Positions 3,202-54,914 of a DNA stretch of 64,000 bases are shown in pieces. Made by a program: the position numbers and the translations under genes. The stretch lies in contig CP066687.1 in assembly GCA_016432405.1 (NCBI GenBank), positions 515,065 to 579,064 of the forward strand. The letters are read 5' to 3'. The stretch is from Candidatus Giovannonibacteria bacterium. GTDB lineage: Bacteria > Patescibacteriota > Minisyncoccia > UBA11713 > 2-01-FULL-45-33. The notes beneath the pieces are model-generated. The model was not told the DNA's origin, searched no databases, and was given only the letters and a program-made list of their open reading frames with translations. Positions within the stretch are counted from its first letter, which is position 1. Every line of letters starts with the position of its first letter.

Positions 3202-6200
3202 TTATAGTATTCTACGCAACCACTCTCCGGTGTATGATTTTTTGTGGGAGGCGATCTCTTTCGGGGCGCCTTCGGCGACCACCTCCCCGCCGTTGCCGCC
3301 GCCGTCCGGACCGAGGTCAATTATCCAGTCGGCGTTTTTTAAGACGTCCAAATTATGTTCAACAACCAAGACGCTGTTGCCTTTATCCACCAGTGCGGAG
3401 AGAATATTTAAAAGTTTTTGGATATCGTCAAAATGGAGGCCAGTTGTCGGCTCGTCTAAAATATAAAGAGTTCGCCCCGTGGCTTTTTTGGAAAGCTCAA
3501 ACGCGAGCTTCACTCTCTGCGCCTCGCCGCCCGAAAGCGTCGTCGCCGGCTGGCCCAGCTTCATGTATCCCAAGCCAACCTCAACGAGAGTTTTCAGGCG
3601 CTGGTCAATTTGCGGAATGTCTTTAAAAAACTTATGCGCCTCTTCTATTGATAAATCCAAAACATCGGCGATATTTTTATTTTGATACAAAATTTCCAGC
3701 GCTTCTTTATTGTACCGCTTGCCGTGGCATTCCTCGCATTCCACGTAAATATCCGGCAAAAAATACATCTCTATTTTTTTAACCCCCTGCCCTTCGCAAA
3801 CCTCGCATCTCCCGCCTTTGACATTGAAGGAGAAGCGTCCCGATTTGTATCCACGGGCGCGCGCCTCAATAGTCCGCGCGTAAATTTCGCGTATAAACGA
3901 AAACACTCCGGTGTAAGTCGCGGGGTTGGAGCGCGGCGTGCGTCCGATGGGTGACTGGTCCACCAACACCGCCTTATCAATATTTTCCAAACCCTCAATT
4001 TTTTTATGCTTGCCCGGCTCTTCTTTTGAGCCGTAAAAATATTTCAAAAGCGCCTTTGCCAAAATGTCGGAGATGAGCGAGGATTTCCCCGACCCCGAAA
4101 CTCCGGAGACGGCGACCAGCTTGCCCAAAGGAATCTTTACGTCAATATTTTTAAGATTGTGCTCGGAAGCGCCTTTGATGGTCAACTTATCCGCACTTGC
4201 CTTGGCGCTAGGTTTTGCAAGGACACGCATATTCGCCTGCTGGCGAATTGCTCTGCTCGCCCCGTCGGTCTGCGCAAGGTCTTGCAAAACCTGCGCCTTC
4301 GGCTCGCTTTTCACTTCTTTTCTGCCAGACAAATATTCCCCAGTCAAAGTTCTCGCGCGTAAAAGTTCTTTATAAGTTCCTTCAAAAATAACTTGGCCGC
4401 CGCGCTTGCCGGCGCCTGGACCCAAATCAATTATCCAATCGGCTTCCTTCATCGTCTCGGCATCGTGCTCCACAACTAATACGGTATTCCCCAAATCGCG
4501 CAAATCTTTCAGCGTTTTAATCAGCCGCGCATGGTCTCTTGCATGGAGCCCGATTGACGGCTCGTCTAAAACGTAAATCACTCCCGTCAAGGCCGAGCCG
4601 ATCTGAGTCGCAAGCCGCACCCTCTGCGCTTCGCCACCTGCCAGCGTCGTGGACTCGCGGTCTATGGTCAGGTAATCCAAACCCACCTCCAACAAAAATT
4701 CCAGCCGCCGCAAAATTTCTCTAAGCAACGGACGCAAAGCGCCACCTCCCCCAACCCCCTCCTTCGTAAGGAGGGGAATAAAAAAATTTCTTGCATCCGA
4801 AATAGTAAGAGCGGAAATCTCGGCAATATTTTTGTCGGCGTAGGTTACGGCCAGCGCTTCCGGCTTAAGCCGCCTGCCCTTGCAGACGGGGCATTGCTCC
4901 ACGCGCATGTATTTTTCTATTTCTTCTCTAGTCCATTCCGATTCCGTTTCTTTCCACCTGCGTTTCAAGTTTTCGATTACTCCTTCGAAACCGCCCGGCT
5001 CCTCGAAACCGGGTTTTGGGACTGCCAAAAAACCCGGTTTCTTCCCGCCGGGCGGTGTTGAGGAGCGAGGCGAATCACCATACAAAATTATTTTCTTTAT
5101 TTTCTCCGGCAATTTCGCGTAAGGCGTGTTTAGAGAAAATCCGTGCCTCTCCGCCAAATCAGATAAAATCCACCAATACCAGGATTGCCGCCCGACTTTG
5201 TGCGAAGCCGTTGCCCATGCCCTGATAGCTCCTTCCGCCAGTGTCAAATTTTTATTTGGGATAACCAAATCCGGCTCAACCTCCAAGGTGCTTCCCAAAC
5301 CGGTGCAATGCGGACAGGCGCCGTAGGGAGAATTGAAAGAAAAAAGGCGCGGTTCAATCTCCGGCAAAGAAACGCCGCAATCCGGGCAGGCAAAGTGCTC
5401 GGAAAAAAGCTGGTCATTTACCCCCACACCAAAATCTTTGGTGTGGGGGTTTATCAATACCAGCCCTTTCCCAATCTTCAGCGCCGTCTCCAAGGACTCG
5501 CGGAGTCGCGGCCTGTCAAGCTCCTTGTCAATGACTAATCTGTCCACCACCACTTCAATATTATGGGCTTGTTTAGGATTCAATCCGCCAGCCGGCGGAT
5601 TTTCCGCTTCGTCCAAGCGCATTATTTCTCCGTCCATCCTCACTCGCAAAAATCCTCCGCGGCGAACCATTTCCAAAATGCTTTTGTGCTCGCCTTTTTT
5701 GCCTCTGACCACGGGCGCGAAAATATCTATCCGCGAGCCGTTCTTTAACCCGCCTGCGCGGGCAGGTTTCAAAATGTGATTTAAAATTTCGTCCGCGCTC
5801 TGCCTGCCTATTTTTTTGCCGCATTTCGGACAGTGCGGCTCACCGGCACGCGCGAATAAAATACGGAGGTAATCGTAAACTTCCGTAATTGTGCCGACGG
5901 TTGAGCGCGGATTTTTTGCCACGCTTTTCTGGTCAATGGCGATGGCCGGCGAAAGGCCGGAGATGGAATCGGCTTCCGGCTTTTCTTTAACGCCCAAAAA
6001 TTGCCGCGCGTAGGAAGAAAGCGACTCCACAAACCGCCTTTCGGCTTCGGCGTAAATAGTGTCAAAAGCCAGAGATGATTTTCCGGAGCCGGAAAGCCCG
6101 GTGATAACCACGAGTTTATTTTTCGGAATATCCAAATCAATATTTTTAAGGTTATGCACCCTCGCTCCCCTAATCCTTATAAAATTTTTGCCGCTCTCTC

Positions 6201-6356: not shown

Positions 6357-7727
6357 ATGCTTACCCGAAAGGGCTTTAAAAAAGCGCCGAATGCGCCCGG
6401 GATTTACTTTTTTAGAGATAAGGGCGGGAAGATTTTATATATCGGCAAGGCGGCAAATCTGCGCGCGCGGATCAGATCATATTTCGGAAAAGCTGCTAAG
6501 CCGCCACTTGGCGGCTTAGCCGCCAAGTTAAACTTAAGTTGGGAAGTTTTGGGCTCGGAAACAGAAGCGCTGATTCGCGAAGCGGAGTTAATTAAAAAAC
6601 ACCTGCCTAAATACAATGTTTTGATGCGCGACGACAAGCAGTATTTTTACGTCGGGTTTACAAAAGAAAAATTTCCGAAAATATTTATCACGCATCAACA
6701 AAACCGCGAAGCAAATTATATCGGCCCGTTCACTGAAGGCGGGGCGTTACGCTCCGTCCTCAAAACTCTCCGCCGCGCATTTCCATATTGCACATGCAAA
6801 AAATCCCATCCGCGCCCGTGCCTCAACGCGCGGATTGGGAGATGTTTAGGGTTTTGCTGTTTACCTCCCCATTCCCCTCCTTATCAAGGAGGGGACCAAG
6901 GGGAGGTCTATAAAAATAACATCCGCGCAATCAAAAAAATCCTTTCCGGCAACAACAAATCGCTTGCGTTCACGCTCAAAAAAGAAATGCATAAGCTCTC
7001 CGACGCCAGAAAATACGAAGAGGCCGGCAAAATCCGCGACCAAATCCGCGCGCTGGAAAAAATTTTTGAACACAGGGGAGTAATCAAGCAGGACTTGCCC
7101 ACAGAGTACCAAAAAGCCCTGCGGGCGCTGGAATCAATTTTAGGCGTATCCGGCATAAACCCCCACACCAAAAAGTTTGGTGTGGGGGTAAATAGAATAG
7201 AATCCTACGACATCGCCAATATTCATGGCCGATTTGCCTATGGCTCAATGGCTGTTTTCGCGAACGGCAAAATTCAAAAAAATGCCTATCGCCTGTTTAA
7301 AATTAAAACGGTCAAAGAGTCCAACGATCCCGCGATGCTTAAAGAGGTTTTGGAACGGAGATTAAAGCATCGCGAATGGCCGTATCCTGAAATTATTTTA
7401 GTGGACGGAGGAAAAAGCCAGCTTAGCGCGGCACTAAAAGCAATACCTCCCCTTGCCCCTCCTTATAAAGGAGGGGATAAAAAGAATAAGCTCCCCTCCT
7501 TACGAAGGAGGGGGTTGGGGGAGGTTATAAAATTCATTGCCCTCACCAAAAATAAAAAACATGTCGGCGACCATATTTTTATTTCCGGAAAAGCATCTCC
7601 TATCTCACTTGCCCGCCTCCCCGAACCGCTCAAAAATTTTATTTTAATGCTGGACTCCGAAGCCCATAGATTTGCGATTTCGCATTACAGAAAACTCCAT
7701 CGCAAAAGCTTGACTTTTAAAACCTAG
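6357..7727 (+). CDS. uvrC: Excinuclease ABC subunit C (UvrC), short form lacking C-terminal HhH
   Basis: 456 aa. GIY-YIG N-term (GIYFFRD...LYIGKA), Cys cluster, RNase H-like motifs (LVDGGKSQL, SEAHRFAI). Two in-frame hairpin insertions. Confidence 0.92.
   Translation: MLTRKGFKKAPNAPGIYFFRDKGGKILYIGKAANLRARIRSYFGKAAKPPLGGLAAKLNLSWEVLGSETEALIREAELIKKHLPKYNVLMRDDKQYFYVGFTKEKFPKIFITHQQNREANYIGPFTEGGALRSVLKTLRRAFPYCTCKKSHPRPCLNARIGRCLGFCCLPPHSPPYQGGDQGEVYKNNIRAIKKILSGNNKSLAFTLKKEMHKLSDARKYEEAGKIRDQIRALEKIFEHRGVIKQDLPTEYQKALRALESILGVSGINPHTKKFGVGVNRIESYDIANIHGRFAYGSMAVFANGKIQKNAYRLFKIKTVKESNDPAMLKEVLERRLKHREWPYPEIILVDGGKSQLSAALKAIPPLAPPYKGGDKKNKLPSLRRRGLGEVIKFIALTKNKKHVGDHIFISGKASPISLARLPEPLKNFILMLDSEAHRFAISHYRKLHRKSLTFKT
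6864..6906. repeat. Family 2 hairpin mini-element in-frame in uvrC (copy 1)
   Basis: CCTCCCC-ATT-CCCCTCCTT-ATCA-AGGAGGGG-ACCAA-GGGGAGG, a nested palindrome. Encodes PPHSPPYQGGDQGEV. Confidence 0.7.
7446..7524. repeat. Family 2 hairpin mini-element in-frame in uvrC (copy 2, tandem hairpins)
   Basis: CCTCCCC...CCCCTCCTTATAAAGGAGGGG...CCCCTCCTTACGAAGGAGGGGG...GGGGAGG. The 33-nt core matches the uvrA copy in reverse complement. Confidence 0.7.
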
Positions 7728-7740
7728 GTGCTAATTTAAT

Positions 7741-8020
7741 CCTAGTTTGGCATGGAAACGGGAATGGGCTTTTAGAGAAACTTGATAGTCCGGTCTGCGG
7801 GTATGCGCACTATCATACCCTATCGAGGAGTAGCTAAAAGCAACTTCTATCCAGGAGGATGGAGGGTTCGAGTCCCTCTTTTGGACCGGTCTGAAACGGG
7901 GAATTTAGGTAAGCGTAGGATAGGTGGGAGGCGATGAGGTCTTGCCTCTGGGCAAGGATTAGCCAACCTTGAAATACCACCCTTTCTAAAAATCCTAAAG
8001 TAAGATTCCATGCTGAACTC
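7741..8020 (+). ncRNA. Candidate structured non-coding RNA of unknown class (contains tRNA-like T-arm GGAGGGTTCGAGTCCCTCT)
   Basis: About 320 nt non-coding stretch between uvrC and secG with several stable helices (GGTGGG/CCACCC, CTTGCC/GGCAAG) and a canonical T-loop at 7861-7879. Followed by an intrinsic terminator. No complete tRNA or tmRNA could be folded by hand. Confidence 0.3.
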
Positions 8021-8060
8021 GGGGAGAGTGTCCTAGTACCTCTCCCCGTTTTACTTTTTT
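8021..8060 (+). terminator. Rho-independent terminator
   Basis: GGGGAGAG-TGTCCTAGTACC-CTCTCCCC hairpin followed by GTTTTACTTTTTT. Confidence 0.65.
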
Positions 8061-8237
8061 GGCTCATTGACTTCCCTATTTACACATGCTAACCTTAATA
8101 AATAATGCCAGGTAGTGAAATTTCGCATCACGGCGAAGCCGTAAGCAACTACTTTGGCAATGCTCTCAAACGTGATATTGTTTGCAAAAAATAAATATGT
8201 TTAGATTATAAAATAATGCGAAATTCTACTACCTGGA

Positions 8238-8456
8238 ATGCGTAATTTACTCCTCTGGGCTCAAATCGTGATTTCAGCGCTCTTGGTCGCGGCTATTTTG
8301 CTCCAGCAAAAAGGCGTGGGTTTAGGCGCGGCTTTCGGCGGAAGCGGCCAGATTTACAGGTCAAAACGGGGGCTGGAGAAAGGATTATTTATTGCTACGA
8401 TTGTACTCGGAGTATTATTCACCTTGACCGCTTTTATCACCCTCATTATCAAATAA
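8238..8456 (+). CDS. secG: Preprotein translocase subunit SecG
   Basis: 72 aa, two TM segments flanking LLQQKGVGLGAAFGGSG, the SecG signature region. Candidate promoter TTGCAA (8182-8187) ... TATAAA upstream. Confidence 0.8.
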   Translation: MRNLLLWAQIVISALLVAAILLQQKGVGLGAAFGGSGQIYRSKRGLEKGLFIATIVLGVLFTLTAFITLIIK

Positions 8457-54381: not shown

Positions 54382-54882
54382 GGCTGGGGATTTGGATTCT
54401 CCGCTCATAAGCCGAGTTCTGTTTAAATAGCCATCTGTCTGGTCCCGCGATTGCTCTGCGGGATCTAGCGTCCGACTACCGAGGTTAACTCGACGTCGGA
54501 CTTGCACCGGGCCCCGACGTAAAGCCGGGGTCCCGACTTCGCTATCAAAAATTTTAATAGTGCGTCGGGACAAGTGTTTTTCACCGCGCGCTGTCACCAA
54601 CGCGCGCTGTGAGCTTTTACCTCACCTCTTTTCACCCTTGCGCTATCAACGCTTCCGGCTTTAGACCGAAAATGATGACGTCCGCGGTATTGTCTCTGTG
54701 ACACTCTCTCGTCCCGCCGTTGGCGGGAGGTGGCCGTTAGCCACTGCCTCTGCCAAAGTTGCCCGAAGCGCAGCGAGGCCGCAACTTTGAGCATCCCGAC
54801 TTTACGTCGGGATTACCTTAGCGGTGCTCGGACTTTCCTCCCTTCCCAAAGCTTGCGCATTGTGGCGGGCGGCTATCCGGCG
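54382..54882 (-). ncRNA. rnpB: RNase P RNA, bacterial type A (M1 RNA)
   Basis: Minus strand contains GGAGGAAAGTCCGAGC (P4 5' strand/CR-I), AGGGTGAAAAGAGGTGAGGTAAAAGCTCAC (CR-II/III), ACAGAACTCGGCTTA (CR-V, P4 3' strand), and P1 pairing GATTCTTCGC/GCGGAGAATC. Consensus promoter upstream and terminator downstream. Length about 500 nt suggests lineage-specific insertions. Confidence 0.8.
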
Positions 54883-54886
54883 AAGA

Positions 54887-54914
54887 ATCTTCCTACATTA
54901 TAGCAGCGTCCCAA
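54887..54914 (-). promoter_or_regulatory. rnpB promoter
   Basis: Minus strand reads TTGCAA (54909-54914), 16 nt, TATAAT (54887-54892). The transcription start coincides with the P1 5' strand. Confidence 0.65.

Follow-up and report, generated by a model that had tools for sequence, protein, structure and literature searches.

Background

The L1 stalk of the large ribosomal subunit comprises helices H76-H78 of 23S ribosomal RNA (rRNA), E. coli positions ~2093-2196. It grips transfer RNAs (tRNAs) on their way out of the ribosome. Its head binds ribosomal protein uL1 and also stacks against the elbow that T-loop and D-loop form in the E-site tRNA. In crystal structures, 23S fragments covering ~2105-2184 are sufficient for specific L1 binding, and the L1 sites of messenger RNA (mRNA) leaders are small, partial mimics located in cis upstream of rplK or rplA. 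Many bacteria of the Candidate Phyla Radiation (CPR) have incomplete L1 stalks or no uL1. A free-standing bacterial Y RNA, YrlA, contains a tRNA-like module with a T-arm. Elbow docking by the L1 stalk and by the related double T-loop modules of RNase P and T-box RNAs has been reviewed (PMC4810234, PMC4919913). Here we describe an RNA element that carries a copy of the L1 stalk outside the rRNA gene. It is found in a 64,000-nucleotide (nt) stretch of a Candidatus Giovannonibacteria genome (Patescibacteria/CPR), referred to as the window, at ~7744-8060 on the + strand. The element measures 276 nt from one strand of its closing helix, P1, to the other, and ~315 nt including the terminator.

Very probably this element is a real, conserved RNA gene. 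Our reading, to which we give a probability of about 0.5, is that of a free-standing non-coding RNA gene with a tRNA-like and an L1-stalk module, which probably acts off the ribosome as a mimic of the L1 stalk gripping tRNA-type elbows.

Sequence similarity to 23S rRNA

The most informative feature is the copy of the L1 stalk at 7913-7981, which was absent from an earlier annotation of this DNA made from its letters (the sequence-only reading). Using BLASTN against 5,426 E. coli genomes, window 7915-7985 was aligned to E. coli 23S 2112-2182 with 74-78% identity. The first T-loop region of the head is GCGUAGGAUA, where G7915 is aligned with E. coli G2112, and the second is CCUUGAAAUA, where A7972 is aligned with E. 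coli A2169; in the ribosome, G2112 and A2169 are the tertiary pair that receives the stacked elbow of the E-site tRNA. The position of H76 is occupied by an irregular stem (7890-7912/7982-8005). All members of the family presented below are colinear with E. coli H76-H78, and the head retains nearly all universally conserved L1-stalk nucleotides, including H78 and the flanks UGAAG/GGAGCC. Additionally, positions 2126-2215 of the Rfam large-subunit rRNA model match one member, L085, with 61.6 bits. The similarity to 23S ends at the stalk boundary and there is no continuity with flanking rRNA.

The features of the element are given below, with H77 and H78 named in E. coli numbering.

7710-7715 (+): putative -35 box TTGACT, read from the sequence, overlapping the final uvrC codons
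7729-7737 (+): putative extended -10 box TGCTAATTT, with a 16-nt spacer to the -35 box
7744-7757 (+): 5' strand of P1, AGUUUGGCAUGGAA, 14 bp with 8006-8019
7758-7789 (+): lineage-specific insert separating P1 from the acceptor-like stem, from segment lengths
7790-7796 (+): 5' strand of the acceptor-like stem, CCGGUCU, pairing with 7883-7889; family core CGGUC at 7791-7795
7799-7820, 7826-7848 and 7849-7860 (+): three extra hairpins (segment 7799-7860), from the minimum free energy (MFE) fold of 7785-7900
7861-7879 (+): T-arm, GGAGGG 7861-7866, canonical T-loop UUCGAGU 7867-7873, CCCUCU 7874-7879
7883-7889 (+): 3' strand of the acceptor-like stem, GGACCGG; its last G opens the family-conserved GUC at 7889-7891
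7890-7912 (+): 5' strand of the H76-like stalk stem, irregularly paired with 7982-8005
7913-7981 (+): replica of the L1-stalk head, from BLASTN, colinear alignment, RNAalifold and the covariance model
7923-7927 and 7977-7981 (+): H77, GGUGG/CCACC
7930-7964 (+): H78, GGC 7930-7932 to GCC 7962-7964
7941-7946 and 7951-7956 (+): distal hairpin of H78, CUUGCC/GGCAAG
7982-8005 (+): 3' strand of the H76-like stem, returning to P1; distance CCAC-P1 25 nt, family range 15-74 nt
8006-8019 (+): 3' strand of P1, UUCCAUGCUGAACU, partner of 7744-7757
8020-8028 and 8040-8048 (+): stem of the intrinsic terminator, CGGGGAGAG/CTCTCCCCG, followed by TTTTACTTTTTT to 8060

One member, L095, allows the small RNA to be compared with the 23S rRNA of the same host. 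The stalk of its own 23S reads GGGAGAC...GAGAUACCAC and scores 63.8 bits (E = 2.1e-13) with the covariance model described below, whereas that of its small RNA reads GGGAGGC...GAAAUACCAC, which is the universal form, and the small-RNA element scores 102.3 bits (E = 4.8e-23). Since the two stalks are unlike, the RNA was not copied from the rRNA of its host. A 23S gene or pseudogene fragment was thus rejected, as homology is present but neither rRNA continuity nor, in the comparison within L095, derivation from the host is found. In the L095 sequence (1-1165, 2091-2225) the small RNA and the 23S-5S operon are on opposite strands, ~400 nt apart. The 23S of L095 has A-U in place of G-C as the basal pair of H78 and GAGAUACC in place of GAAAUACC, and the small-RNA copy has the universal form.

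Homologous loci and covariation

Contigs of JGI metagenomes were scanned with the pattern GTTCRANTCC-N30-60-GGGAGG-N25-55-GAAATACCAC, which combines the T-loop with two L1 blocks. The scan resulted in 19 loci, of which 13 are distinct family members, the window being the 14th. Two pairs among the family matches are duplicates (L086/L094 and L089/L093). L087 together with its duplicate L098, L097 and L102 were discarded as chance matches; L087, L097 and L102 were tested with the covariance model and rejected by it.

The members share one architecture in the order promoter, P1, acceptor-like stem, T-arm, stalk strand, L1 head and terminator or U-run. The segment between P1 and the acceptor-like stem is 1 nt in most members, where it is a single unpaired A, but 5 nt in L103 and 53 nt in L092. 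The acceptor-like stem has 5 bp in the family and 5-7 bp overall. A canonical T-arm abuts its 3' strand in the fashion of a tRNA and is followed by the conserved GUC, the conserved nucleotides of the junction being 'A-C' 5' of the stem and 'GUC' 3' of it. Between the acceptor-like stem and the T-loop the distance is 17-123 nt. The minimal members L086, L088 and L101 have a G-rich, D-loop-like linker of 12-14 nt and are without an anticodon arm, and elsewhere up to ~120 nt of extra hairpins are found. In the window, the extra hairpins at 7799-7860 give the tRNA-like module the look of a cloverleaf, but this segment is variable across the family.

The stalk strand bridges the acceptor-like stem and GGGAGG. 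It measures 33-37 nt in 12 of the 13 members, 40 nt in L092 and 37 nt in the window. Thus its length is near-constant while other segments vary between 15 and 123 nt. Some members carry an additional hairpin and the motif GACCCCGA in the return strand, which is short in the window (7982-8005). The smallest member, L101, has 207 nt. At L100 (312-1361) an open reading frame (ORF) takes the place of the 3' part of the RNA (return strand and P1), apparently through disruption by an insertion sequence (IS); the N-terminus of this ORF resembles an IS30-type transposase, as judged by eye only.

Full-length alignment with MAFFT was unusable for the 5' parts, which were brought out of register by inserts of 17-123 nt. 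A gapless module alignment of 47 columns was therefore extracted by hand from 12 members, covering P1, the acceptor-like stem and the T-arm. In this alignment standard pairs occupy 93.5% of the cells, a value that is inflated by the choice of strands (see Discussion), compared with 38-50% when partners are slid by 1-3 columns. Changes on both sides are seen in 15 of 18 pairs (shuffled mean 10.2), and none of 500 shuffles reaches the observed values. All eight analysed pairs of P1 have double-sided changes across the 12 members. The acceptor-like stem covaries as well, with for example G-C replaced by A-U at position 2, and so does the stem of the T-arm, where the loop-adjacent pairs are invariant G-C.

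As an independent check, RNAalifold was run on natural sequences of the 13 non-window members, from T-arm to head. The helices that it predicted were exactly the T-arm, H77 and H78; 12 of 20 pairs show compensatory changes, among them pairs of both H77 and H78. A covariance model, R1, was built from the 13 metagenomic members with the window excluded. R1 matched window 7860-7992 over the full model length with 100 bits (E = 2e-23), and over 545 kb of other loci nothing further was found below E = 0.01. The window carries a single copy of the RNA. In this way the T-arm, the strand of 33-40 nt and the H77/H78 head are scored by R1, and P1 and the acceptor-like stem, which enclose the T-arm, both covary across 12 members. 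Covariation in relatives had been named as a test by the sequence-only reading, and it is present across the metagenomic members.

Promoter, fold and terminator

The + strand folds with an MFE of -116.7 kcal/mol (z = -3.44), a value that not one of 100 shuffles attains. Together with the 14-bp closing helix 7744-7757/8006-8019, this bears out the stable long-range helices noted earlier from the letters. The T-arm noted at 7861-7879 (GGAGGG/TTCGAGT/CCCTCT) is present there as well, and so is the GC hairpin with U-run, located at 8020-8060. This terminator consists of a GC-rich stem of 9 bp and a loop of 11 nt, followed by UUUUACUUUUUU. The terminator scanner was blind to 8020-8060 because its loop limit is 8 nt.

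Transcription is predicted to start at ~A7744, which is the first base of the closing helix. The consensus promoter scanner made no call at 7710-7737, as TAATTT agrees with TATAAT at only 3 of 6 positions. The same layout, TTGACT-N-TGCTAA/TAnnnT, is also found 5' of the element in L089, L091, L096, L099, L100 and L101. A direct repeat was seen inside the RNA, GGAAACGGGAAU at 7755-7766 and UGAAACGGGGAAU at 7893-7905, one copy following P1 and the other following the acceptor-like stem.

Search against known RNA families

Searching window 7300-8400 with cmscan against Rfam 15, at the gathering threshold and at E <= 10, gave no match on the element for transfer-messenger RNA (tmRNA), signal recognition particle (SRP) RNA, 6S RNA, T-box, Y RNA or other families. 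Five relatives searched at E <= 1 gave no family match beyond tmRNA hits of 12 bits, which cover the T-arm alone in L101 and L086. ARAGORN found neither tRNA nor tmRNA at the locus, in line with the remark of the sequence-only reading that no such fold could be completed. The candidates it had named, tmRNA, SRP and 6S, did not survive the Rfam search that it had itself proposed. What stands of its identification is a structured, separately terminated non-coding RNA other than canonical tRNA and tmRNA; its named identities, the leader discussed below included, were not borne out.

tmRNA was also rejected on structure. The acceptor-like stem 7790-7796/7883-7889 lies inside the molecule, with UCUGAAAC after it instead of CCA, and there is no equivalent of G3-U70 and no tag ORF. 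Furthermore, the element of L090 adjoins smpB and a genuine tmRNA of 139.5 bits. tRNA was rejected because neither ARAGORN nor RF00005 gave a call and only the T-arm is canonical.

Debris of a chimeric 23S and tRNA pseudogene, or a divergent tmRNA, SRP, 6S or Y RNA, would account for the similarity to 23S, for the tRNA-type T-arm and for the 12-bit tmRNA matches. We give this explanation scarcely any credence, as it is at odds with a family conserved through compensatory changes, with the element's own promoter and terminator, and with an rRNA similarity that stops exactly at the stalk and differs from the host 23S in L095. For a divergent tmRNA in particular, the genuine tmRNA of L090 and the missing CCA, tag ORF, ARAGORN call and Rfam match count against it.

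Gene context

The element was described earlier as intergenic between uvrC and secG, which is correct: it lies in the 510-nt gap leading from the one gene to the other. The exact locus is also present in the samples SRR12113385-SRR12113426.

6357-7727 (+): uvrC, stop codon 7725-7727
8238-8456 (+): secG, downstream neighbour

In the nearest relatives, whose UvrC is 67-73% identical, uvrC and secG are 29 nt apart and the RNA gene is absent. Among 80 uvrC loci from GTDB genomes no homologue of the RNA was found by BLASTN, nhmmer, motif search or the covariance model. As the gap of the relatives is without the RNA, the RNA gene of the window is a lineage-specific insertion at uvrC-secG. A coding function was rejected, since ORFs across the region lack any significant Pfam match; the top one is Tachystatin_A (E = 0.11).

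Position bears on the possibility of a cis-regulatory leader, T-box-like or of the ribosomal-protein type, for secG and the genes downstream. The element does precede secG on the strand that both share, it has a terminator at its 3' end, and its head is a module of the tRNA-elbow-binding type, as is T-box Stem I. Nevertheless a leader is highly improbable, because secG has its own promoter 3' of the RNA terminator, homologous to the promoter of relatives without the RNA, and because the genes downstream change from member to member, those of L088 and L090 lying on the other strand and converging on the element. Neither a T-box or leader match in Rfam nor an evident alternative antiterminator pairing was found. 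The tRNA-like leader suggested by the sequence-only reading fails for the same reasons, the RNA having a promoter and terminator of its own. A leader of the ribosomal-protein L1 type was rejected too, as the neighbours are not rplK, rplA or the L1 operon in any locus. No tblastn match to rplA, rplK, rplJ or nusG was found in the window or the loci, using approximate E. coli queries, a result that has no bearing on the rest of the genome.

Across the members the neighbours are housekeeping genes, often together with tRNA genes (uvrC/secG, infB, dnaK/grpE, smpB, argS, glyA and tRNAs), and none is common to the whole family. In L099, whose IF2 has its best named relatives in Paceibacterota and Jorgensenbacteria, the RNA is located at infB between tRNA-Ser and tRNA-Glu. 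Three related infB loci (L105-L107) have the same tRNA-Ser and tRNA-Glu with no RNA between them, by which the infB neighbourhood is ruled out as a conserved site. The absence at the same site in closest relatives and the varying neighbours indicate a free-standing, patchily distributed RNA gene. The family belongs to Patescibacteria (Paceibacteria) and counts at least 14 members. In L107 a second copy of the tRNA-Ser 3' end (GGAATCCCACCCTCTCCGC) was noticed at ~3600-3650 (-) between tRNA-Ser and tRNA-Glu; it resembles an integration scar and lies at the same inter-tRNA site as the RNA gene of L099.

Such a distribution could be expected of a selfish or mobile small RNA gene, or of the cargo of one, whose structure serves its own spread or maintenance. 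Occupancy of uvrC-secG in the window lineage only, the L099 site that is empty in L105-L107, the insert next to the window element at 8108-8236, which resembles a miniature inverted-repeat transposable element (MITE), and the IS30-like element interrupting L100 are all in favour. This origin is still quite improbable: no terminal inverted repeats, integrase or reverse transcriptase are found nearby, the window holds a single copy, and two scans of viral contigs gave no matches. The 'TTGACTT' repeat flanking the element was considered as a target-site duplication and rejected, since TTGACT(T)-N12-13-TGCTAA is the promoter consensus of the clade, 'TTGACTT' being its -35 part, and recurs at unrelated promoters.

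The MITE-like insert has terminal inverted repeats of 21 bp (CCAGGTAGTGAAATTTCGCAT) with two mismatches between the arms. It lies exactly at the start codon of secG and is flanked on either side by a copy of the duplicated ATG. The relative L005 lacks the insert, and there is no second copy within the window. A palindrome, CCCTCCTT-NNN-AAGGAGGG, occurs four times in the window versus 0 expected (4757-4775, 6875-6893, 7457-7475 and 7494-7512). All copies are inside ORFs, three of them in uvrC as in-frame inserts of the PPY[KQ]GGD type that are absent from relatives, and they resemble the in-frame palindromic elements of the Rickettsia type. Spurious Rfam matches to microRNA and engA families at 7446-7585 arise from the hairpins of the palindromes.

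Discussion

P1 closes the molecule, and a three-way junction leads into two modules. The tRNA-like module consists of an acceptor-like stem of 5-7 bp stacked on the canonical T-arm, with a G-rich linker or extra hairpins, and the L1-stalk module, a near-complete replica, of a stem of H76 length carrying the H77/H78 head with both T-loop regions. Most likely, the head would grip a tRNA-type elbow off the ribosome. The elbow could be that of a cellular tRNA, probably deacylated, which would lie along the stalk and have its acceptor end close to the conserved junction; alternatively, a second copy of the RNA could supply the elbow through its tRNA-like module. uL1 would probably be carried too if the host has it. 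As a decoy, sensor or scaffold, the RNA would thereby imitate the E-site corner of the ribosome. Candidate protein partners would be E-site factors such as EF-P and ABCF ATPases, which on the ribosome meet the L1 stalk and a tRNA at once.

The conserved nucleotides of the head and the narrow range of stalk length point to a ligand held between head and junction. Docking of the head on the elbow of its own molecule is unlikely, as we estimate the stalk at ~60-70 Å and an 11-bp acceptor/T arm at ~35 Å. A full-size tRNA along the stalk, or the tRNA-like arm of a second copy, seems to fit the lengths better. In a more specific version, the 'E site in a bottle', the L1-stalk replica would act in trans and capture cellular (deacylated) tRNAs by the elbow, the stalk serving as a ruler and the junction and tRNA-like arm contacting the other end of the tRNA, and the gene may stem from Parcubacteria lineages that lost uL1. 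This version we put forward very tentatively.

The same near-constant stalk length, the presence of both modules in every member and the conserved junction ('A-C'/'GUC') would also suit an architectural device made of RNA only. Here stalk and elbow would form tertiary contacts locking the RNA, or a symmetric homodimer or oligomer of it, into a rigid shape, with the activity located elsewhere, for example at the junction, and with no cellular tRNA or uL1 involved; double T-loop modules are structural docks in other large RNAs (PMC4810234). We consider this conceivable but rather unlikely. Conservation of the head, including H78, exceeds what the elbow docks of RNase P and T-box RNAs need, and the lengths of the arms disfavour docking within one molecule.

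A third possibility is that the RNA titrates or stores free uL1 at its perfect rRNA-type site as a trans-acting sponge or carrier, the tRNA-like arm being accessory. It would then be a free-standing counterpart of the L1-binding leader that acts in cis in the L11/L1 operon. H77, H78 and the nucleotides between the helices agree with the 23S consensus, 23S fragments of ~2105-2184 are enough to bind L1, and the promoter agrees with the consensus of the clade. However, this is an unlikely role for the RNA. It leaves the universally conserved tRNA-like module and the fixed stalk length unexplained, and no rplK or rplA was found near any locus with approximate queries. It also depends on uL1 being present in the host. 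A Shine-Dalgarno (SD) sequence is found upstream of 6 of the 44 long window ORFs against a background of 11.7%, which is no enrichment, and many window ORFs have a TATAAT-like box ~4-10 nt 5' of ATG. These signals suggest that the mRNAs of the window may be largely leaderless. Parcubacteria without the anti-SD motif largely overlap the group lacking uL1 (PMC9297842; PMC5220378), and the host is probably such an SD-less member.

Several points weigh against the reading of an elbow-gripping mimic, in addition to the mismatch of lengths in self-docking. The strands of P1 and of the acceptor-like stem were chosen by eye or by script for complementarity, so that the pairing percentage is inflated, and the slid-partner control offsets this bias only partly. 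The search pattern demanded GGGAGG and GAAATACCAC, and the invariance of these two blocks is partly by construction. The family is small, with 13 distinct loci from a single scan, and its patchy distribution makes it accessory, not universal. Binding of uL1 appears plausible from the sequence but is doubtful for the window host, which would be SD-less. Finally, the mechanism is inferred by us from mimicry, and our confidence in it is low to moderate.

If the RNA binds tRNA, it would be a new kind of tRNA-recognising RNA, and if it binds uL1, a new kind of RNA binding a ribosomal protein. Should the 'E site in a bottle' be true, it would add a third natural class to the tRNA-measuring RNAs RNase P and T-box, and no earlier case is known of an rRNA domain put to new use as a gene of its own. 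The RNA could bear on tRNA release and ribosome regulation in CPR bacteria. It is a testable object: a transcript of ~280-315 nt is predicted, and the family has a consensus fold, a covariance model and 14 sequences.

Comparison with known systems

The RNA fails the defining tests of each of its nearest known systems and belongs to a family that we have not found described. In Rfam 15 and the searchable literature there is no free-standing RNA joining a tRNA-like arm to an L1-stalk replica, that is, no rRNA domain copied at sequence level into a gene of its own and fused to a tRNA mimic.

With the tRNA-like domain of tmRNA the RNA shares an acceptor-like stem on a T-arm, a D-loop-like G-rich linker and, in the minimal members, the lack of an anticodon arm. 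It differs in that its stem is internal and not formed from the termini; CCA, the G-U identity pair, the tag ORF and the pseudoknots are all missing. YrlA has a terminal closing helix and a tRNA-like module with T-arm in common with the RNA but is not known to have an rRNA-stalk module, and the window RNA has no Rfam match. No rsr (Ro) gene was noticed among the neighbouring ORFs, which had no protein-family scan.

The principle of elbow stacking is shared with T-box Stem I and with the specificity domain of RNase P, and the helix of fixed length recalls the ruler of T-box Stem I. These modules are L1-stalk-like in fold only, whereas the window RNA is a copy at sequence level, H78 included. 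It has no specifier loop, T-box sequence or antiterminator, and RNase P RNA is present separately within the window at 54392-54888 (-). This RNase P RNA is of class A (111.6 bits, threshold 100) and contains several large insertions, being ~497 nt long against 367 positions of the model.

The L1-binding leaders of the L11/L1 operon likewise mimic the L1-binding region of 23S. The window RNA differs from them in being a full replica of the stalk, free-standing and far from any ribosomal-protein gene, and its host may lack uL1 altogether.

The closest relation is to the L1 stalk of 23S itself. The RNA is colinear with it, blocks GUAGGAUAGGUGGGAGGC and ACCUUGAAAUACCACCCUUU are identical in the window RNA and E. 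coli, and H77, a covarying H78, the equivalents of G2112/A2169 and approximately the native length of H76 are retained. Unlike the ribosomal stalk, the RNA is located outside the rRNA gene, in a molecule of ~300 nt with its own predicted promoter and terminator, and its stalk is rooted on P1 and a tRNA-like arm, where the ribosomal stalk has H75 and H79.

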